Part shown: positions 20,182 to 29,234 of the stretch, one piece after another
Layout of the letters: every line of letters starts with the position of its first letter
Position numbering within the stretch: the stretch's first letter is position 1
Assembly: GCA_037189525.1 (NCBI GenBank)
Contig: JBBCJC010000001.1
Span: forward strand, 128,001 to 192,000
Length of the DNA: 64,000 nucleotides
Direction: 5' to 3'
From: Gemmatimonadales bacterium
Lineage (GTDB): Bacteria > Gemmatimonadota > Gemmatimonadetes > Gemmatimonadales > GWC2-71-9
Made by a program: the position numbers and the translations under genes
The notes under the pieces: model-generated
Seen by the model: only the letters and a program-made list of their open reading frames with translations
Told to the model about the DNA's origin: nothing
Database searches by the model: none

Positions 20182-20661
20182 CTATCTCCTGCGACTTCGA
20201 CCGCGGGCGGGAGGATTCTCCCGGCTGAGCGGCGGACGGGCCGGAACGGCCGGCGGGGCACCCCCGCTCCGCACCAGCGACTCCACCGTCGTATCCGCGA
20301 GAAAACGAAGGATCGACTCCGCAATCGGCTTCCAGCGGTGGTGCGCCACGCAGGCGACACGGTCGTTGCAGGCCGATTGACCGAGCAGACAGGTCCGATA
20401 CGCCGCCACGTCCTCGAACGGCGCGATAACGGTCGCGAGCCGGAGCCGCGTCGCGGGTTTGGCGAGCACGAAACCGCCATGACGGCCCCGGCGAGAAGCC
20501 AAAACGCCCGCCCCCGCCAGCTGATGGAGGATTTTGGAGAGGTAATTCGCGGGAACGTCGAGCGTGGCCGCCAGCTCGGTAGCGTGGGAAGGTTCCTCCG
20601 GTGGCCGGCTGGCGATCAGCGCCACGACTCGCAGCGCATATTCGGAGGTTTGGTTCAACAT
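20182..20661 (-). CDS. Rrf2 family Fe-S transcriptional regulator
   Basis: SEYALR, YLSKIL..L...G...S.RG..GGF.LA, C-terminal CLLG...C.....C..H..W. ATG 20661 after AGGTGG. Confidence 0.9.
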   Translation of the reverse strand: MLNQTSEYALRVVALIASRPPEEPSHATELAATLDVPANYLSKILHQLAGAGVLASRRGRHGGFVLAKPATRLRLATVIAPFEDVAAYRTCLLGQSACNDRVACVAHHRWKPIAESILRFLADTTVESLVRSGGAPPAVPARPPLSRENPPARGRSRRR

Positions 20662-20675
20662 CGGCCACCTACGGA

Positions 20676-21209
20676 TCAAGGACCTCGCACGACGAAAGCG
20701 CCATCCTGATAGCTCACCAGAACGGCGACACCAGGCTCAAAAGTAATCGTAGTATCGAGCACGAGCGGCGACGGAATCTGAGGTCCTGCTGACGCGGAGT
20801 CCATCGCCTCCCGCCGCGTGAATTGCACCCGGATGTGGCGCGCACCCGGCGAAAGTGGATAGGAGCGCAGCAGGAAAATCGGCCGATCCTGCCGGAGCCC
20901 GCCTCCGGTGACCACCGCCTCCTCCAGCGTGTCGCGCGCGGCCAGGACCAGCAGGGTGTAGGTCGCGGCGTGGCCCTCACACTCCACCGCGCGGCGCATG
21001 TGCACGGGGCGCTTCGCCAGCTCGGCAGCATCGAGGGTGCGGCACTGCTCGATCCGCTCCGGCCGCATACTCCAGGAGAGCCGCAACTCGGTCGCGTCGG
21101 CGGTATGCCACCGCCATGCGCCGCCCGAACTGGCCGCCAGCAGAGCCGCGAGCCCCAGCGTCACGACCACCGCCACCGAGGTGCGCACGAGTTGCCGCCC
21201 GCTCGTCAT
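20676..21209 (-). CDS. Membrane-anchored hypothetical protein, partner of the cytochrome b fusion
   Basis: C-terminal 177 aa of the listed 722-aa frame. Starts MTSGRQLV after GGAGG, with ATGA overlap on the upstream stop. One TM/signal, two Cys, beta-rich C-terminus. Confidence 0.75.
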   Translation of the reverse strand: MTSGRQLVRTSVAVVVTLGLAALLAASSGGAWRWHTADATELRLSWSMRPERIEQCRTLDAAELAKRPVHMRRAVECEGHAATYTLLVLAARDTLEEAVVTGGGLRQDRPIFLLRSYPLSPGARHIRVQFTRREAMDSASAGPQIPSPLVLDTTITFEPGVAVLVSYQDGAFVVRGP

Positions 21210-22798
21210 TTCGGCGCCTCCTCCCGGTCGCTGGCGCAAAGCGCGAGCAGATCCAGGGCATCGTCCGGTTCCACCGTTTCCAGCGCGGCGATCTCGCGCC
21301 GGAATGTCTCGAAGGCCGCCAGCACGTCGCCGTCCAATCCCACCGCGGCGGTGACCGTCCGCACTCGGCGCCGGTCGACTCGCGCCTGGAGTTCGGCCTC
21401 GCGATCGTGATAGAACCGCTGCTCGAGCCACTTGGGGCCTTCGCGTCCCACGCAGTCGCGCGGGGGGCACCCCGTCACCATCACCCCGCCGGCTCCCTGG
21501 CGCAGCAGCAACTCGACCACCGAGGAATGCAGTCCGCCCACGCAGGGCACCTCGTGGATATACGCACCCAGCGAGGCCAGCCGATGGCGGAGGGAGGCCG
21601 CTCCTTGTGCGCAGGCGACGACTACGAGACGTCCGCCCGGTTCCGGCGGTAGACCGGATACAGGCCCCTCGCGAATGACGGCGAATTGGTCGCGGCCCGT
21701 GCGTCCGGGCGGCCCCACCCCCATCGGTGCGCAGGAGCCGGCGCAGATCCCGCAACTCACGCAGAGGCTCGGATCGACCCGGGCCACCAGTGTCGGCCGA
21801 TCGTCGTCGCGCTCGACCATCCGGATGGCTTCCCAGGGGCAGTCCTGGGTGCACTGGTCGCATCCGGTGCAGCGCTGCGGGTCTACCACGCTCTGTGCCC
21901 AGCTTCCGGTGCGCGGCCGGCGAGCCAGCCGGGGCACGAGCAGCGCTCCCAGGCCCAGTACCCCGATCGTCATCCAGACCGCCCAGGCGGGAGCCCGCTC
22001 CGCCATGGGCAGCCACCACGTGGTCGTCAGCGCGAGCGGCGTCTCGCTGGGCAGGCCGAGCAGGTCGGCCGCCGGGCCGAGCGGCGCGGGCAGCACCACG
22101 GCAATGCCGAGCAGCGTCAGCGTCACGGTCCAGCGAATGACACGCGGCGGCGTCAGCACCGGGCGAGCCACCTTCGAGATGTGGAGCCAGAGGCCGGTCC
22201 CCATCGCGAGCGGAAGCGCAATGTGAATGAACAGGTTGAGAAAGAAAAAAGTTCCCGGCACCGGCCGGTCGCCGGCAAAGAGACGGCTGACCGGCTCGGA
22301 AACGATCGGCAACGCGTCGACGAGGCGCGCCCCCATCACAGCAATCCTGAGACCCAGCGTGTCCCAGGCCATCACGAACCCGGTCCAGGCGCAGAGGAGC
22401 CCGACGCCGAAGAGGAAGATCCCGCTCACCCAGGCGCGCGTGCGCGGCCCCCACTCGCGCGCCTGTCCCACCAGACGCACCGCATGGAGCAGCGCCGCGA
22501 GCACGAAGGCGTCGGTGGCGTACCGATGCAGCGACCGGACCCACGAACCGAGCCACGGGTCGGCCGCCAGCCGCGCGACCGATTCGGCCGGCGCGCCGAT
22601 CCGATAGACGAGCAGGAGATAGAGACCGGTGACGGTCAGGATGAGCAGCAGCCAGGACGCCAGCGCGCCGCTCTGGTGCAGCGGGTTTCCGCGCCAGCCG
22701 TAGACGCGGTGCATCAGGGCGTCGAGGGCGCGCGTCATCCGGCGCAGGGTGGCTTCCACCCGGCGCATCGCCCGAAGGCGTGCAGTGATAGACGGCAT
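21206..22798 (-). CDS. Fusion: cytochrome b (b6-like) + 2x[4Fe-4S] ferredoxin + MvhD/FlpD-like [2Fe-2S] domain
   Basis: His pairs in RSLHRYATDAFVLAALLHAVR and FIHIALPLAMGTGLWLHISK. CTGCDQCTQDCP and CVSCGICAGSC. ACAQ...VPCVG...TGCPPRDCVGREG. Confidence 0.85.
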   Translation of the reverse strand: MPSITARLRAMRRVEATLRRMTRALDALMHRVYGWRGNPLHQSGALASWLLLILTVTGLYLLLVYRIGAPAESVARLAADPWLGSWVRSLHRYATDAFVLAALLHAVRLVGQAREWGPRTRAWVSGIFLFGVGLLCAWTGFVMAWDTLGLRIAVMGARLVDALPIVSEPVSRLFAGDRPVPGTFFFLNLFIHIALPLAMGTGLWLHISKVARPVLTPPRVIRWTVTLTLLGIAVVLPAPLGPAADLLGLPSETPLALTTTWWLPMAERAPAWAVWMTIGVLGLGALLVPRLARRPRTGSWAQSVVDPQRCTGCDQCTQDCPWEAIRMVERDDDRPTLVARVDPSLCVSCGICAGSCAPMGVGPPGRTGRDQFAVIREGPVSGLPPEPGGRLVVVACAQGAASLRHRLASLGAYIHEVPCVGGLHSSVVELLLRQGAGGVMVTGCPPRDCVGREGPKWLEQRFYHDREAELQARVDRRRVRTVTAAVGLDGDVLAAFETFRREIAALETVEPDDALDLLALCASDREEAPK

Positions 22799-22845
22799 CT
22801 TGTGGAATATATATCACCTCTATATGATATTTACAAATGTCCACT
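22799..22845. promoter_or_regulatory. AT-rich overlapping divergent promoters with inverted repeats (candidate Rrf2 operator)
   Basis: Plus strand TTGTGG(22800)-N17-TATGAT(22823). Minus strand TTGTAA and TATATATT. Inverted repeats ATATCA-N8-TGATAT and GATATTT-AC-AAATGTC. Confidence 0.6.
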
Positions 22846-22888: not shown

Positions 22889-23056
22889 ATGGATCCGACC
22901 GATCCGCGCGTCCCCGACGAGCCCGTTCCGTTGATGCAGCGTCTCTACGACAACATCTGGCTGCTCCTGGTTGCCGGTCTCGTGGTCATGTTCGTCGTCT
23001 ATACCGGCTGGGGCATGTGGGAGATCCTCACGATGCCGGCCGGCACTCTCCCGTGA
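22889..23056 (+). CDS. Small single-TM subunit of the heme-copper enzyme
   Basis: MDPTDPRVPDEPVPLMQRLYDNIWLLLVAGLVVMFVVYTGWGMWEILTMPAGTLP, GAGGAG RBS, first gene of the operon. Confidence 0.8.
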   Translation: MDPTDPRVPDEPVPLMQRLYDNIWLLLVAGLVVMFVVYTGWGMWEILTMPAGTLP

Positions 23057-23063
23057 GGCATCG

Positions 23064-23669
23064 ATGCTGACCAAGATCCACACGGGGCTCGACCCCGTCC
23101 CGGGTGTCTGGTGGCGCCCTGCGCACAAATCGGAAAAGATCTGGGTGGCGATCGCGTTCGCCTGGTGTATGGTGCTCTTCGCGATGATGCCGCTCTGGCA
23201 CTGGAAGGGCGGCCAGAACCCGTCCGGGATCCGCAGCAAGGTGGATCCCAAGGCGTTCTATTCCCGGACCGTCGCCTTCGCGCGCGAGTACCGAGTCGGC
23301 GAGGATCGGGGCATCCCGATCGTCGCGCCGCCGCCGGGCAGCGACATCTATCTCACCGCGCTCTCGTTCCAGTGGTATCCCATCCTCCAGCTCGAGAAGG
23401 ACAAGGAGTACATCCTCCATCTCTCCGCGCTGGATGTGAATCACGGGTTCAGTCTCTATCCGCTCAACGTGAACTTCCAGGTGGTGCCGGGCTACGACTA
23501 CGGGCTCCGCGTCACCCCGACCGCGACGGGTGATTTCCGGATCATCTGCAACGAGTTCTGCGGGATCGGCCATCACACCATGGTGGGCAGGATGATCGTC
23601 GTCGACGCGAACGGCAGTCCGGTCGCCGACAACGCCGCAGCGGCAGTGCGGCGGGAGGAGGCACGATGA
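23064..23669 (+). CDS. Heme-copper oxidoreductase subunit II (CuA)
   Basis: One TM. CuA ligands in DVNHGF and CNEFCGIGHHTM. Confidence 0.92.
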   Translation: MLTKIHTGLDPVPGVWWRPAHKSEKIWVAIAFAWCMVLFAMMPLWHWKGGQNPSGIRSKVDPKAFYSRTVAFAREYRVGEDRGIPIVAPPPGSDIYLTALSFQWYPILQLEKDKEYILHLSALDVNHGFSLYPLNVNFQVVPGYDYGLRVTPTATGDFRIICNEFCGIGHHTMVGRMIVVDANGSPVADNAAAAVRREEAR

Positions 23670-25417
23670 CGGCCCCCGCACTCTCGCTCGACGCGTTCCG
23701 GACCTGTCAGTCCACCGGACGGCGCATCCACCGGCAGGTCGAGCCCCTCATCAAGGCCAACGCCGTCGTCGCCGTGGTCACACTCCTGATCGGAGCCGCC
23801 GCCGCGCTCCTGCTGGTGCTGACCCGCTGGCAAGCCGTGCATCTCCTGCCGGCGGAGTGGTACTACCGCCTGCTGGGCGTGCACGGCATGAACATGCTGA
23901 TCTTCTTCATCATCTACTTCGAGATGGCGGTCCTCTGGTTCGCAGGTACCGTGCTCCTCAATGCGCGCCCCGCCGCACCACGCTACGGCTGGTTCAACTT
24001 CGGCCTGATGGTGTTCGGGACGCTGATGGTGGAGTGGACTCAATGGACCGGCCGAGCCGACGTGCTCTTCACGTCCTACCCTCCCCTGCAGGCGCACTGG
24101 GCCTTCTATCTCGGCATCATCCTGTTCGCGGTCGGTGCGCTGGGCGTCACGGCACAGTTCTTCGCCACGATCACGATCGCCAAGCGGGAGCGGACCTACG
24201 AAGGATCGATGCCGCTCGTGGTCTACGGCGCGCTGACGGCGGCGATCATCGCCGTCATCACCCTGCTCCACGGCGCCATCATCTACATCCCGACCTTCCT
24301 CTGGTCGATCGGCCTGATCGAGCGGGTCGATCCCCAGGTCTACCGGATGATCTGGTGGGGGCTCGGCCATTCGTCGCAGCAGATCAACATGGCCGCCATG
24401 GTGGCAATCTGGTACATGCTCGGCGCGCTGACCGTAGGCGCCGTGGTGCTGAACGAAAAAGTCAGCCGTACCGCGTTCGTGCTCTATATCCTGTTCATCT
24501 CGATGGCGTCGGCGCACCACCTCCTCGTCGACCCCGGTTTCGGGTCCGCCTGGAAGATCACCAACACCTCGTACTTCATGTACATGGCGGTGCTCGCCTC
24601 CATGATCCACGGCTTCACCATCCCGGCCGGCATGGAGTTGGGCATGCGTCTGCGCGGCTTTACCCGTGGCCTCTTCGACTGGCTCCGTCGCGCACCGTGG
24701 GGCGACCCCGGCTTCAGCTCGCTGGTGCTGTCGGTGGTGGTTTTCGGGTTCGTCGGAGGCATCACGGGTGTCACGATCGGGACGGAGCAGATCAACATCA
24801 TCGTGCACAACACGCTCCGGGCGCCGGGACACTTCCACGCGACGGTGGTGAGCGGCACCGCGCTCGCGTTCATGGGAGCGACGTACTACCTCCTGCCACT
24901 CATCTTTCAGAAGAAGGTGGCGTTCTGGGGCTTTGCCAGGATCCAACCCTATCTCTTCTCGCTCGGCATCCTGCTCCTCTCGATCGGAATGACGTTTGCC
25001 GGCAGCTTCGGAGTGCCGCGCCGCCATTGGGATGCGTCGTTCTCCACCGCGATGTTCGACGTGACGATGAGCCCGGCGGTCGATCTCGTCCTTGCGATCA
25101 TGGGCATCGGCGGCATCCTCGCCGTGATAGGTGCATTCGGTTTCGTCGCCATAGCCGTGGCGTCCGTGTTCTTCGGGAAGCCGTTGGGTACGATCACGCC
25201 TGGTGTGGCAATGGCGGGAGTGCCGCAGGGCCTCACCCATCCGCCGGTACACGGCCCCGACGTCGATGCGCGTAACGAGGAACTCCACGCACCGGCACGC
25301 GACTGGATGGGCCCGACCCCCGGCACCATCGTCCTGGTAGCGGTCTTCCTGATCGCGTTCATGACGTACTACTTCACCAACTGGAAGTTGCTCTCGTTCC
25401 TCTGGAAGGTCGGATGA
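23666..25417 (+). CDS. Heme-copper superfamily subunit I, B-family-derived, putative eNOR-type nitric oxide reductase
   Basis: Six His ligands (GVHGMNM, GLGHSSQQI, SAHHLL, PGHFHA). B-family HNT...PGHFH. Gln at the His+4 position where O2 reductases have the cross-linked Tyr. Confidence 0.8.
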   Translation: MTAPALSLDAFRTCQSTGRRIHRQVEPLIKANAVVAVVTLLIGAAAALLLVLTRWQAVHLLPAEWYYRLLGVHGMNMLIFFIIYFEMAVLWFAGTVLLNARPAAPRYGWFNFGLMVFGTLMVEWTQWTGRADVLFTSYPPLQAHWAFYLGIILFAVGALGVTAQFFATITIAKRERTYEGSMPLVVYGALTAAIIAVITLLHGAIIYIPTFLWSIGLIERVDPQVYRMIWWGLGHSSQQINMAAMVAIWYMLGALTVGAVVLNEKVSRTAFVLYILFISMASAHHLLVDPGFGSAWKITNTSYFMYMAVLASMIHGFTIPAGMELGMRLRGFTRGLFDWLRRAPWGDPGFSSLVLSVVVFGFVGGITGVTIGTEQINIIVHNTLRAPGHFHATVVSGTALAFMGATYYLLPLIFQKKVAFWGFARIQPYLFSLGILLLSIGMTFAGSFGVPRRHWDASFSTAMFDVTMSPAVDLVLAIMGIGGILAVIGAFGFVAIAVASVFFGKPLGTITPGVAMAGVPQGLTHPPVHGPDVDARNEELHAPARDWMGPTPGTIVLVAVFLIAFMTYYFTNWKLLSFLWKVG

Positions 25418-26334
25418 TTCCGGCGCGAGCGTCGCGGCTGCCCCTGGCCGTCGTGGCGCTCGCCCTCGTGCTCGTCATTACCGCGGCCTGGTGGGCCCTG
25501 GCGCTCTGGCCGCTCGGTGCGGACACGCCGGACTGGATCGTGACGACCCGCGAAGTGTGTTTCGGCGCGTCGCGGACCGGTCTCCCGCATGCCGGCGGCT
25601 GGCTCCTCCTGATCGGCGAGCCGCTTGGCATGCTGGCGGTGCTGGTGGTGGTCTGGGGCGCCGAACTGCGCCAGGGACTCAGCCGTCTCCACCGGACGAT
25701 CCCGGGGCAGTTGCTGAGCGCGACGGTGGTGGTCCTTTGCGGCATCGGACTCATGGCCGCCGGGCGCCGCATCGCCGACGCCAACCGGGACACAGCCGTC
25801 TTCAATCCTGCAACACCGCTGCCGGCGCGCGACGATGCCCCTGCTCCCGCCCTTGCCCTCATCGATCAGCATGGCGAGACGACCGATCTCACCGCCTTTC
25901 GCGGCCGGTGGGCTCTGGTGACATTCGCCTTCGGTCACTGCGAGGACATCTGTCCCGTCATCGTCGACATCGCCAAGCGCGCGCGGCGGGACGCCCAAGT
26001 CGAACATGTTCCGATTCTGGTGGTGACACTCGACCCCTGGCGCGATACGCCGGGGCGTCTCCCGGCCATCGCCGATGCCTGGACGCTCGGCACGGACGAT
26101 CGGGTCCTCTCCGGTAGCATTGCGGACGTGACGGCAGCCCTCGACAGCTGGGGAATTGCCCGCCAGCGTGACGAACGCACCGGCGACGTGGTCCACGGCA
26201 GCACGATAGTAGTAGTGGATCCGGAGGGGCGCGCAGCATGGCGCCTCGACGGGGCGCCGCACCGGGTGCGCGAGGCGCTGGAGATCGTGGCTGCAGACGA
26301 GAGCACACCGGCCCGCTTCACGTCATCGAGATAG
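25414..26334 (+). CDS. SCO/SenC copper chaperone with N-terminal multi-TM extension
   Basis: FAFGHCEDICP (CxxxC), VTLDPWRDTP, VVHGS. Confidence 0.88.
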   Translation: MIPARASRLPLAVVALALVLVITAAWWALALWPLGADTPDWIVTTREVCFGASRTGLPHAGGWLLLIGEPLGMLAVLVVVWGAELRQGLSRLHRTIPGQLLSATVVVLCGIGLMAAGRRIADANRDTAVFNPATPLPARDDAPAPALALIDQHGETTDLTAFRGRWALVTFAFGHCEDICPVIVDIAKRARRDAQVEHVPILVVTLDPWRDTPGRLPAIADAWTLGTDDRVLSGSIADVTAALDSWGIARQRDERTGDVVHGSTIVVVDPEGRAAWRLDGAPHRVREALEIVAADESTPARFTSSR

Positions 26335-26516: not shown

Positions 26517-27341
26517 TTGAACCGTCGAGCACTGCTGGCCTCGCTCTCCCTCTTCGGGGGAGTTTTGGGTTGCGGCCGGACGGCGAATACACCGCCCCCG
26601 GTCGTTACGGTCTTCGCCGCGGCTTCGCTCTCGGGCGCGTTTGCGGAACTGGGCCAGCTCCTCGAGCAACGACAGACCGGATTGACGGTCCGGTTCAACT
26701 TTGCCGGCTCGCAGCAGCTCGCCCTGCAGATCCATCAGGGCGCTGCGGCGGATGTATTCGCCTCGGCCGACGAGCGCTGGATACGTGCCGTGTCCGACAG
26801 CGGGCTCGTGGCCGGCGCGGCGGAGATCTTCGCGCACAACAGCCTGGTGGTGATCGTCCCCACCGCCAACCCCGGCCGGATCGAGCGACTCGAGGACCTG
26901 ACACGCCGAGGGCTCAAGCTGGTGCTGGCGACCGAGACGGTCCCGGTAGGCAAGTACAGCCGAGAAGTACTCGGCAAGCTATCCGGTGCTCCGGGCTTCG
27001 GGACGACCTATGCCGAGCTGGCGCTGCGCAACGTGGTGTCGTTCGAAGAGAATGTGAAGGCCGTCGCCGCCAAGGTGCAGCTCGGCGAGGCCGATGCCGG
27101 CATCGTCTACCGCTCCGACGTGACCTCGGCCACCGCACCCCAGGTCCGCATCATTCCGATCCCGGATCAGTACAACGTCGTGGCCGACTATCCGATCGCC
27201 GTACTCGCGCGGGCCAGAAACGAGGCCGGTGCGCGGGCCTTCCATGACCTGGTGCTCTCGGCGGAGGGCCAAGCAGTGCTCGAGCGCCACGGACTCACGC
27301 CTGCCGGTGTCGGCTCCGTGCCAACCTCGGACGCGCCCTGA
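26517..27341 (+). CDS. modA: Molybdate ABC transporter substrate-binding lipoprotein
   Basis: Lipobox VLGC, VFAAASL, FAGSQQL..QI..GA.ADVFASA, VPVGKY, ENVK, ADAGIVY.SD. Confidence 0.93.
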   Translation: MNRRALLASLSLFGGVLGCGRTANTPPPVVTVFAAASLSGAFAELGQLLEQRQTGLTVRFNFAGSQQLALQIHQGAAADVFASADERWIRAVSDSGLVAGAAEIFAHNSLVVIVPTANPGRIERLEDLTRRGLKLVLATETVPVGKYSREVLGKLSGAPGFGTTYAELALRNVVSFEENVKAVAAKVQLGEADAGIVYRSDVTSATAPQVRIIPIPDQYNVVADYPIAVLARARNEAGARAFHDLVLSAEGQAVLERHGLTPAGVGSVPTSDAP

Positions 27342-27346
27342 CACCC

Positions 27347-28174
27347 ATGCTGCGATGGTCGACGGTGCTGGCCCGTATCGGGGTCGGTCTGGCGGTGGCT
27401 CTGCTCGTGCTGCTGATCGCGCTGCCGCTCTTGGGCCTCGTGCTCCGTATCGCGCCGGGCGACCTGATCCACCAGCTGCGCCAGCCGATCGTCCTCGACG
27501 CCTTGCGTCTCAGCCTGATCACCAGCGTCACCGCAACGATGCTGGTCATCGGGCTCGGGTTGCCGGTAGCCGGGCTGATTGCCACCAAGGAGTTCCCCGG
27601 CAAGCGCGCGCTGGAGGTGCTGATCGAGCTGCCGATGGTGCTGCCGCCCACCGTGGCCGGGCTCGGGCTGCTGCTCGCCTTCGGGCGGACCGGGCTTGCA
27701 GGCCGATCACTGGACGCTCTGGGGATCAGCCTGCCCTTCAGCACCGCCGCGGTGGTGCTGGCGCAGGCATTCGTGGCGGCGCCCTTCTTCATCACTGCCT
27801 CGGTGGCAGGCTTCCGCGAAGTCGAGCGCCGCTATCTCGACACCGCGGCGACGTTAGGCGCTCCCCCGCTCACCCAGCTCATTCGGGTGATCCTGCCGCT
27901 CAGTCTGCCGTCGCTCCTGGCAGGGGCCGCCATGGGATGGGCGCGCGCCCTGGGCGAGTTCGGAGCGACCATCACGTTCGCCGGCAATCTCCAGGGCGTC
28001 ACCCAGACGATGCCCTTGGCGGTCTATCTGGCGCTGGAGGCCGATCTCCGCGCGGCGGTGGCGCTCGCCGTGCTCCTGCTGCTCGTCTCGGTGGTACTGC
28101 TCCTCGCGGTTCGCACCGTGGCCCCTCGTCATCGTCTCAGTTCTGCAGCGCATGCTGTCCGCCACACTCCATAA
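27347..28174 (+). CDS. modB: Molybdate ABC transporter permease
   Basis: LPMVLPPTVAG, WARALGEFGATITFAGNLQGVTQTMPLAVY. Confidence 0.93.
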   Translation: MLRWSTVLARIGVGLAVALLVLLIALPLLGLVLRIAPGDLIHQLRQPIVLDALRLSLITSVTATMLVIGLGLPVAGLIATKEFPGKRALEVLIELPMVLPPTVAGLGLLLAFGRTGLAGRSLDALGISLPFSTAAVVLAQAFVAAPFFITASVAGFREVERRYLDTAATLGAPPLTQLIRVILPLSLPSLLAGAAMGWARALGEFGATITFAGNLQGVTQTMPLAVYLALEADLRAAVALAVLLLLVSVVLLLAVRTVAPRHRLSSAAHAVRHTP

Positions 28175-29234
28175 ACGGCTCGGTGGGTTCGAGCTCACGG
28201 CGTCGCTCGAAGCGGAGCCAGGCACCACCCTCGTGCTCGTGGGTGAGAGCGGGGCCGGCAAGACGTCGGTGCTCCGTCTCCTGGCCGGACTCGAGCGGCC
28301 CGACGAGGGACGGATCGTGCTCGACGGCGTCACTTGGTTCGACGGAGCGCGCGGCCTCTTCGTTCCGCCGTGGGATCGCGCCATCGGGTATCTTGGGCAG
28401 GACTATGTCCTGTTCCCTCACTTCAGCGTATTCGACAACGTCGCCTTCGGGCTTCGCACCCGGCGGTTGCCGAAATCGGCGATTCGCGCCAGGGTGACGG
28501 ATGCGCTGGAGCAGCTGGGCATTGCGGACCTGGCCGATCGGCGTCCGGACCAGCTGTCCGGTGGCCAGCGGCAGCGTGTCGCGCTGGCCCGCACCCTGGC
28601 GCTCGAACCCCGCCTGCTGTTACTCGATGAGCCGCTCTCGGCCGTGGACCTGCAGACCAGGCGTACCGTGGCGCGAGAGCTCCGCCGAGTGCTCGCTCAG
28701 CTCTCGTGCGTGACGATCTATGTCACCCACCATCCGATCGAAGCTCTGACCTTCGGCGACCGGATCAGCGTGATCGAAGCCGGCCGGGTGAGTCAGACCG
28801 ACACGGCGGAGGTGTTACTGCGACGGCCACGCTCGCCGTATGCTGCGGAGCTGCTGGGTGTCAACCTGTTCCGGGGAACGATTCGCGCCGGCGACCCCAC
28901 CACCGTCGTGACCGACTCGGGTGCGATCGCCGTGGCAGGCATCGAGTCGGAGGCGGGCGTCGAGCCCGACGGTGAGGTCTGGCTTGCCGTCAACCCGCGT
29001 CACATCGTGCTCTCAGTCGAGCCGATGTCCACCTCGGCGCAGAATGTCTTTGAAGGGAAGATCACCGAGCTGATTCCGGAGCCACCGATGGGCGAGCGGG
29101 TCCGCGTCGTGCTCGCCACCACGCCGCCCCTGGTGGCCGAGGTGAGCGAGCACGCAGTGACGGAGCTCGGATTGCGACCGGGACTCGAAGTCTTCACCGC
29201 ATTCAAGGCAACCGGGGTGACGGTCTATCGGTAG
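28152..29234 (+). CDS. modC: Molybdate ABC transporter ATP-binding protein with TOBE domain
   Basis: GESGAGKT, LSGGQRQRVALAR, LLLDEP, C-terminal TOBE-like segment (LGLRPG..V...FKA). Confidence 0.9.
   Translation: MLSATLHKRLGGFELTASLEAEPGTTLVLVGESGAGKTSVLRLLAGLERPDEGRIVLDGVTWFDGARGLFVPPWDRAIGYLGQDYVLFPHFSVFDNVAFGLRTRRLPKSAIRARVTDALEQLGIADLADRRPDQLSGGQRQRVALARTLALEPRLLLLDEPLSAVDLQTRRTVARELRRVLAQLSCVTIYVTHHPIEALTFGDRISVIEAGRVSQTDTAEVLLRRPRSPYAAELLGVNLFRGTIRAGDPTTVVTDSGAIAVAGIESEAGVEPDGEVWLAVNPRHIVLSVEPMSTSAQNVFEGKITELIPEPPMGERVRVVLATTPPLVAEVSEHAVTELGLRPGLEVFTAFKATGVTVYR

Follow-up and report, generated by a model that had tools for sequence, protein, structure and literature searches.

A cytochrome b-ferredoxin-FlpD fusion with a predicted periplasmic partner accompanies eNOR-type haem-copper genes in four bacterial phyla

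A 64,000-nucleotide stretch of the genome of a Gemmatimonadales bacterium (assembly GCA_037189525.1, contig JBBCJC010000001.1, positions 128,001 to 192,000; here called the window) encodes a 530-amino-acid protein in which a cytochrome b, a dicluster ferredoxin, and an FlpD/MvhD-like domain are joined, opposite the genes for a putative haem-copper nitric oxide (NO) reductase of the eNOR type (Table 1). We conclude that the fusion is real, widespread, and uncharacterised, and that, together with a 177-amino-acid neighbour (the S domain), it constitutes a module that accompanies 84 of 85 eNOR-type genes in 754 genomes from four phyla. The architecture is known already, as in part is the pairing with eNOR. 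New here are the two-way census, the S domain with its His-Met motif as a core part, the dispensable iron-sulfur (Fe-S) arm, and a sister form in Rieske/cbb3 clusters. We propose, at somewhat less than even odds (roughly 45%), that fusion and S domain form a cross-membrane reductant conduit for the assembly or reactivation of the eNOR metal sites.

RESULTS

The claim of the original prediction that four cytochrome b haem histidines, a dicluster ferredoxin, and an FlpD domain reside in one protein is confirmed by alignments and by Pfam matches above cut-off: Cytochrome_B at residues 43-207 (E 1.5e-12), Fer4_7 at 309-356 (E 6.7e-9), and, for the C-terminal domain, FlpD at 413-506 (PF02662, E 3.4e-10; 40.4 bits versus a cut-off of 22.3). 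The AlphaFold model (pLDDT 94) superposes on cytochrome b helices A-F over residues ~23-295 (Z ~20-24), so the subunit-IV-like segment proposed earlier is real. By sequence, helices B and D carry the predicted ligands of both b haems as two H-x13-H pairs (H91/H105 and H192/H206), and these four histidines are invariant in 131 of 131 aligned diverse homologues. In the same alignment, seven of the eight ferredoxin cysteines are invariant and the eighth, C313, occurs in 130; the FlpD cysteines C396, C419, C444, and C449 occur in 130, 130, 129, and 106 sequences, with all four together in 105. The four histidines and all twelve cysteines are present in each of 120 close homologues. The fusion, with 2,394 homologues among 8,000 scored candidates, is thus conserved more than chance would give. 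Its true start is possibly Met10, where a 96% identical relative of 520 amino acids begins.

The Fe-S cassette (residues 302-508) aligns as a single block with positions 571-773 of the HdrA2-type NCBIfam model NF040770 (E 2.7e-13), an arrangement shared with the C-terminal ferredoxin of HdrA plus MvhD. The HdrA C-terminal ferredoxin is also the top structural-database match of the ferredoxin part, and the family profile matches both MvhD structures and cytochrome b6 (E 2e-41). Unlike HdrA2, the fusion has no FAD domain, and it is the only FlpD match, as well as the only cytochrome b match, in the genome (no search was aimed at HdrA, hydrogenase, or formate dehydrogenase). Because there is no other FlpD domain, the MvhD-Hdr logic probably does not carry over. 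Helix F of cytochrome b ends on the cytoplasmic side, so the Fe-S domains are predicted to lie inside the cell, and the loop charges agree with this placement.

The fusion shares helices A-F and the four haem histidines with the b6f and bc1 complexes. It differs from them in that its locus has neither a Rieske nor a cytochrome c1/f gene, in that an Fe-S cassette and then a transmembrane (TM)-anchored, predicted periplasmic domain follow helix F, and in its eroded Qo site. The PEWY motif, reported missing by the original prediction, is indeed absent from this protein, where the Qo position reads L-A-L-T-T. The wider family mostly has x-D-W/L-F/W-Y/F, 119 of 131 sequences having Asp where PEWY has Glu; since most members keep this Asp, usually followed by aromatics, the present sequence is an eroded case and not the rule. 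Among the 120 closest homologues, Asp is kept in only 75, the aromatic residues of the Qo motif have disappeared, and every sequence has Arg for the cd1 Trp. A haem-ci site in the cytochrome b part was considered and rejected, as the required Cys before helix A is absent from the family (alignment column 42 holds Q, R, H, Y, K, or W).

The description as a triple fusion misses one part of the unit. There are four parts, and the 177-amino-acid neighbour corresponds to a domain, predicted to be periplasmic, that is normally fused. In the best 80 of at least 555 confirmed genome loci, the S-domain gene directly follows the fusion gene in 74, the remaining six stopping at a contig edge, and in 106 of 150 listed distant homologues the S domain is joined to the C terminus of the fusion itself. 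Its model (pLDDT 92) shows a membrane-anchored beta-sandwich with a single TM helix; a long hairpin runs between C56 and C77 and turns at H70-M71. Among 93 aligned S domains, M71 and both cysteines are invariant and H70 is nearly so; among the 106 more distant fused S domains, His-Met is found in 93 and the Cys pair in 68. As the Cys pair is less well kept, it is probably a structural disulfide, and His-Met is probably the working motif. When the S domain was modelled in complex with both eNOR subunits (I and II), the score was 0.27 versus a mark of 0.32, which is evidence neither way.

Two homologues lack the Fe-S arm entirely. In one of them (L130:11259-12635, genome G460), within an eNOR operon, cytochrome b is joined straight to the S domain; the second, from another source, has the same layout. 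These proteins (P0290 and P0291, 55% identical) keep the four histidines, the ef-loop Asp, and the C-HM-C pattern. They are 2 of 120 listed matches, and genomic context was seen for one only. Because the arm is cleanly absent, we infer that cytochrome b and the S domain are the core, with the Fe-S cassette behaving as though inserted after helix F and ahead of the following TM helix; the FlpD/ferredoxin arm on which the original prediction laid stress is the part that two homologues dispense with. A different variant, likely a sister of this family, occurs in genomes G692 and G714, where a cytochrome b-ferredoxin protein has a separate FlpD gene and no S domain. Those loci (L212:1956-11283 in G714 and L213:2361-10599 in G692) run in the order cbb3 genes, Rieske, cytochrome b, two small membrane proteins, cytochrome b-ferredoxin fusion, and MvhD gene, and possibly encode a bc complex that is a heterodimer and carries its Fe-S arm on the cytoplasmic side. 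An apparent SCO-cytochrome b fusion (P0254), seen in one sequence only and with an unusual linker, is not used as evidence.

Whether homologues co-occur with Gln-type subunit I was a test that the original prediction had set for itself, and it passed. Paired whole-genome searches with subunit I and with the module gave the following counts (phyla named from centre record titles). In Gemmatimonadota, the phylum in which relatives place this genome, 251 genomes hold 58 eNOR-type genes, 57 of them with the module and 56 of those adjacent to it, counting near-full-length or contig-split module matches and subunit I matches at 48% identity or more. Outside this phylum (cut-offs E 1e-85 in the subunit I searches and E 1e-45 in the module searches), the same genomes carry both in Myxococcota (18 of 151 genomes), Bdellovibrionota (5 of 151), and Acidobacteriota (4 of 201). 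The Gln motif was read only in fetched loci, haem-copper matches of 27-38% identity were left unclassified, and G155 enters the denominator only; as kin are not independent, no statistic is placed on the co-occurrence. The searches were centred on these four phyla, and Thermus and Thermomicrobium were covered on plasmids only.

Subunit I or II of eNOR is present in 76 of the best 80 loci, and three of the other four end at a contig edge; the fourth (L014) is a second module copy with an eNOR operon ~60 kb away on the same contig. In that genome (L014 and L131; G254 contig C4), the module copy next to eNOR and subunit I both have broken frames, possibly through an assembly error. Tree distances of cytochrome b and subunit I are correlated (rho 0.87; 82 of 130 loci), which marks co-inheritance only, as in any co-inherited operon. 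An SCO gene is found in 67 of the 80 loci and lies directly upstream of the fusion in the fused Myxococcota and Bdellovibrionota loci. In the WGFGHPAQQ clade, a heavy-metal P-type ATPase gene stands between subunit I and the fusion in all six loci examined (of eight), and one of these ATPases scores above the Cu-ATPase cut-off and is next to DsbD_2.

The idea that the fusion is dedicated to an NO reductase is partly supported by this pairing, but it is too strong as a general rule, given the sister form and some divergent eNORs with no module nearby. In G189, which has such an enzyme (WIIGHGTQQ), neither module nor S domain was found. When 80 metagenome eNOR loci were ranked by likeness to the G189 enzyme, 44 had the module, 31 were too short, and five, two of them near-identical, had wide flanks and no module. 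The module is present in Defluviimonas, with a hemerythrin gene adjoining it, and is missing from the plasmid eNOR loci of Thermomicrobium and Thermus. In the Thermus thermophilus plasmid enzyme (L087:10001-11683), the low-spin haem His is replaced by Lys (GHFK), and nitrite reductase genes adjoin it.

The enzyme opposite the fusion is, by its Gln motif and CuA-bearing subunit II, of the eNOR type: Gln stands where ba3 oxidase has the cross-linked Tyr, and this exchange is the stated eNOR criterion in the accessible text of PMC8756737. A short single-TM protein conserved before subunit II is presumably the equivalent of subunit IIa. In the SCO protein, Cys49 of the three-TM extension is conserved in 98 of 99 relatives. 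A motif scan of the window found no Rieske motif and, in called genes, no haem-c motif (two CxxCH strings lie in other frames), in agreement with the initial claim that the locus has neither gene. In the divergent intergenic region, a palindrome is a candidate Rrf2 or Crp-type site; similar palindromes occur in 10 of 75 related loci (shuffled mean, 0.37; maximum, 4), the pattern having been derived from these same loci.

Table 1. Features of the module and of the eNOR operon in the window
Feature	Position	Strand	Basis or remark
Rrf2-family regulator, three Cys	20182..20679	-	in 52 of 80 related loci
177-amino-acid partner (S domain), one TM helix and beta-sandwich	20676..21209	-	ATGA overlap with the fusion stop
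S-domain hairpin C56-C77, H70-M71 at tip; candidate metal or haem ligands	20979..21044	-	
Cytochrome b/2x[4Fe-4S]/FlpD fusion, 530 amino acids	21206..22798	-	open reading frame, Pfam, homologues, AlphaFold model
FlpD/MvhD-like domain, residues 391-506; C396, C419, C444, C449; putative [2Fe-2S]	21281..21628	-	
Dicluster ferredoxin, residues 304-357, predicted cytoplasmic	21728..21889	-	placed by the topology of cytochrome b
Cytochrome b part, helices A-F, residues 23-295; predicted haem ligands H91, H105, H192, H206	21914..22732	-	
Palindrome ATATCA-N8-TGATAT, divergent intergenic region	22811..22830	.	candidate regulator site
Subunit IIa-like single-TM protein, 55 amino acids, conserved before subunit II	22889..23056	+	
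Subunit II, CuA motif H127; C162-x-E-x-C166-x3-H170-x2-M173	23064..23669	+	
eNOR-type haem-copper subunit I, H235-S-S-Q-Q239 (H-x3-Q)	23666..25417	+	
SCO-family protein, C176-x3-C180 and H261, 3-TM N-terminal extension	25414..26334	+	

Several neighbours were recorded in passing. A modABC-like molybdate transporter (window positions 26517-29234) directly follows the SCO gene; as just one of 80 related loci (L064) has all three of its genes, it is probably outside the system. Beside some eNOR operons lies a degenerate second COX1-fold gene of ~450-510 amino acids (W-G-x-G-H-V/L/I-L/F-Q, no His-His pair), for instance at L127:8605-10047 and in L130, L173, and L176; its cluster spans 16 loci, mainly of Myxococcota, and it may be the "eNOR scaffold protein" of a preprint on Ferrigenium (bioRxiv 10.64898/2026.01.22.701106). 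At L188:1930-10908, eNOR is found beside nirK, two di-haem cytochrome c peroxidase-like genes, and an arsenite-oxidase-like molybdoenzyme gene.

The genome carries NirK, clade II NosZ, CtaA, c-type cytochromes, and, with labels taken from motifs and gene order, caa3- and cbb3-type oxidases, ccoG, and an alternative-complex-III-like (ACIII-like) cluster; its other strong COX1 matches read as caa3 and cbb3 type. A single Rieske-like gene lies elsewhere with no cytochrome b or c alongside. The conceptual likeness to FixG that was suggested at first is an analogy and not homology, as the CcoG/FixG model TIGR02745 does not match the fusion and has its sole match in the genome at C5:954854, in the cbb3 cluster. 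A search of sequencing runs returned one RNA run with a 0.07 share, on which we base no claim about expression or habitat.

DISCUSSION

The architecture described here is that of the PDWF-FeS clade of Kao and Hunte (2014, PMC4122944), reported in M. magneticum and T. parva (YP_421588 and YP_006440259). In that clade, as here, cytochrome b is fused to 4Fe-4S and MvhD-delta domains in a cluster with no Rieske gene. Compared by description, our fusion probably belongs to the same family, although it has lost the PDWF/PDWY motif by which the clade is defined. The accessible text of that paper gives neither a link to eNOR, nor a periplasmic His-Met domain, nor a function. T. parva and Alicycliphilus appear in the part of the eNOR list of Murali et al. 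open to us, and a figure legend of bioRxiv 2021.10.15.464467 names the AMB-1 eNOR neighbourhood. According to the accessible portion of the Ferrigenium straubiae preprint, cytochrome b-[Fe-S] genes lie inside the eNOR operon, so that cytochrome b plus Fe-S protein, eNOR, and SCO are shared with the present locus. That text calls the genes rather unusual and possible Ferrigenium markers; here they are the norm in four other phyla. The window, unlike Ferrigenium, holds no paralogue with an FAD/NAD domain.

As regards the enzyme, Murali et al. (2024, PMC11214002) reported, in the text open to us, that eNOR of Rhodothermus marinus reduces NO and that the spread of eNOR roughly matches that of cNOR and qNOR; Gln for Tyr, a CuA subunit II, and ba3 oxidases as the closest solved relatives are common to their enzyme and ours. 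The purified enzyme had two subunits and turned over with tetramethyl-p-phenylenediamine (TMPD)/ascorbate (PMC11214002; bioRxiv 2021.10.15.464467). In the accessible text, CtaA is the only operon gene mentioned, and a natural electron donor or assembly factor is not given. The open portion of an Accumulibacter paper (PMC6446978) calls the enzyme ba3 and leaves the module unmentioned. Our literature search did not reach most subscription papers or the supplements of bioRxiv preprints; within that scope it turned up neither biochemical nor genetic work on the fusion, as had been suspected from the start, and no description of the S domain in the texts available.

The original prediction offered electron supply or maturation as alternatives; both remain the leading options. 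In the reading that we prefer, the fusion and its neighbour would be a single eNOR-specific accessory unit. Electrons would pass from a soluble donor to the FlpD [2Fe-2S] cluster, through the two [4Fe-4S] clusters, the inner haem, and the outer haem, and on to the periplasmic His-Met site. There they would serve as low-flux reductant for the assembly or reactivation of the eNOR metal sites, either CuA (as Cu(I), jointly with the SCO protein) or the active-site metal, in a role parallel to that of CcoG for cbb3 oxidase. We favour maturation because the module lies among assembly genes (SCO and, in one clade, a heavy-metal ATPase), because the genome already has quinol:cytochrome c routes, and because purified eNOR is a two-subunit enzyme. 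Moreover, outward electron flow would spend membrane potential and would therefore suit low-flux jobs. We take Cox11 and NosR to be comparison systems beside CcoG/FixG. The accessible text of PMC8267372 describes CcoG/FixG as a membrane protein with 4Fe-4S motifs among oxidase copper-assembly genes, and the Cu-type ATPase beside the fusion in one clade echoes the ccoG-ccoI pair. CcoG is not homologous to the fusion and has no di-haem cytochrome b, so this is analogy only.

A number of points weigh against maturation. As the cytoplasmic arm is lost in two proteins, quinol may be a donor, a point that a simple wire leaves unexplained. CcoG is reported, in the text available, to work on cytoplasmic copper (PMC8267372), whereas the His-Met site of the fusion is predicted to be outside. 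His-Met is missing from 13 of 106 fused S domains, and most loci have no Cu-ATPase. No family was named for the S domain by Pfam, PDB sequence, or Atlas searches (Atlas at 0.9 or more), and fold searches returned generic beta-sandwiches with no clear match to a known chaperone fold; the best hit (Z 8.4, root-mean-square deviation 3.1, 93 residues aligned) places any likeness to Cox11- or FixG_C-type periplasmic beta-sandwiches at that same generic level. The sister form sits inside a cbb3-Rieske-cytochrome b cluster, in genomes that carry a ccoG-like gene elsewhere, and a cytochrome c domain is fused to one homologue that has no His-Met (P0244, a single case) and a cytochrome c gene is adjacent in another locus (L172), both of which fit a feed of electrons.

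Such a feed is the substance of the alternative that tempts us most, although we hold it only tentatively: a cytoplasmic carrier or quinol would deliver electrons to CuA of the working enzyme through a His-Met-bound redox centre or a fused or adjacent cytochrome c, giving eNOR a dedicated donor and a Rieske-free path by which NO is quickly removed. Beyond the cytochrome c cases and the setting of the sister form, it is favoured by the absence of Rieske and cytochrome c genes from the window and of any that recur in four or more related loci, and by the Asp at the Qo position in most of the family. Accessible parts of the literature add one such protein with a cytochrome c domain (Schwartz et al.; RME88945.1, listed with cytochrome b6, FlpD, and C1 cytochrome domains) and flavin/NAD-domain versions in Alicycliphilus and Ferrigenium (PMC4122944; bioRxiv 10.64898/2026.01.22.701106). 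On the other hand, the closest homologues have lost the Qo aromatics and the cd1 Trp, an outward wire would cancel the charge separation of eNOR, and the enzyme was purified without a third subunit, albeit from R. marinus, which the census did not include. The ACIII-like cluster here and further cytochrome b matches in many module-bearing genomes argue in the same direction, and they also weaken the notion of a stand-in for a missing bc complex.

Electrons might instead run the other way. For Ferrigenium, a supercomplex has been proposed in which NO reduction drives electron transfer from quinol to ferredoxin or NAD+, and the proteins were detected in the proteome (bioRxiv 10.64898/2026.01.22.701106, accessible text); the ferredoxin-FlpD cassette does resemble an HdrA/MvhD junction. 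We nevertheless consider reverse flow highly improbable here, since the fusion has no flavin or NAD domain, neither a Rieske protein nor any other partner for bifurcation is encoded in the locus, two homologues do without the cytoplasmic arm, and the conserved periplasmic arm is given no role.

The gene neighbourhoods bring up a further explanation, that the protein, under shared regulation, responds to NO stress or senses redox state, or else is a reductase in the synthesis of haem A(s), and does not itself act on the metal sites of eNOR. The frequent Rrf2 regulator, the ctaB-like and ctaA-like genes present in 21 and 14 of the clustered loci, respectively, and the Defluviimonas hemerythrin are in keeping with it. 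We judge it improbable, as the co-occurrence with eNOR is far tighter than for any stress gene seen, and as in genome G126, where eNOR is gone, a module remnant and a broken SCO gene decay together.

A broader evolutionary view, which we put forward as an unlikely but attractive one, is that a cytochrome b descended from bc/b6f complexes was rebuilt as a one-way wire across the membrane in which an unrelated beta-sandwich replaces the Rieske protein. The His-Met tip of the TM-anchored hairpin would then shuttle a metal or an electron between eNOR and the outer haem, at the former Qo site. If this is true, the module would supply what has been missing for a widespread enzyme that produces nitrous oxide (N2O), a physiological donor or a metal-insertion factor, and the S domain would be a new type of periplasmic redox domain.

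The module is an obvious candidate for the natural electron donor or an assembly factor of eNOR. The focus shifts from the MvhD domain to the His-Met arm and the two haems, and the spread over four phyla speaks against the use of such genes as Ferrigenium markers. The module may also matter for the expression of active eNOR in a laboratory host.

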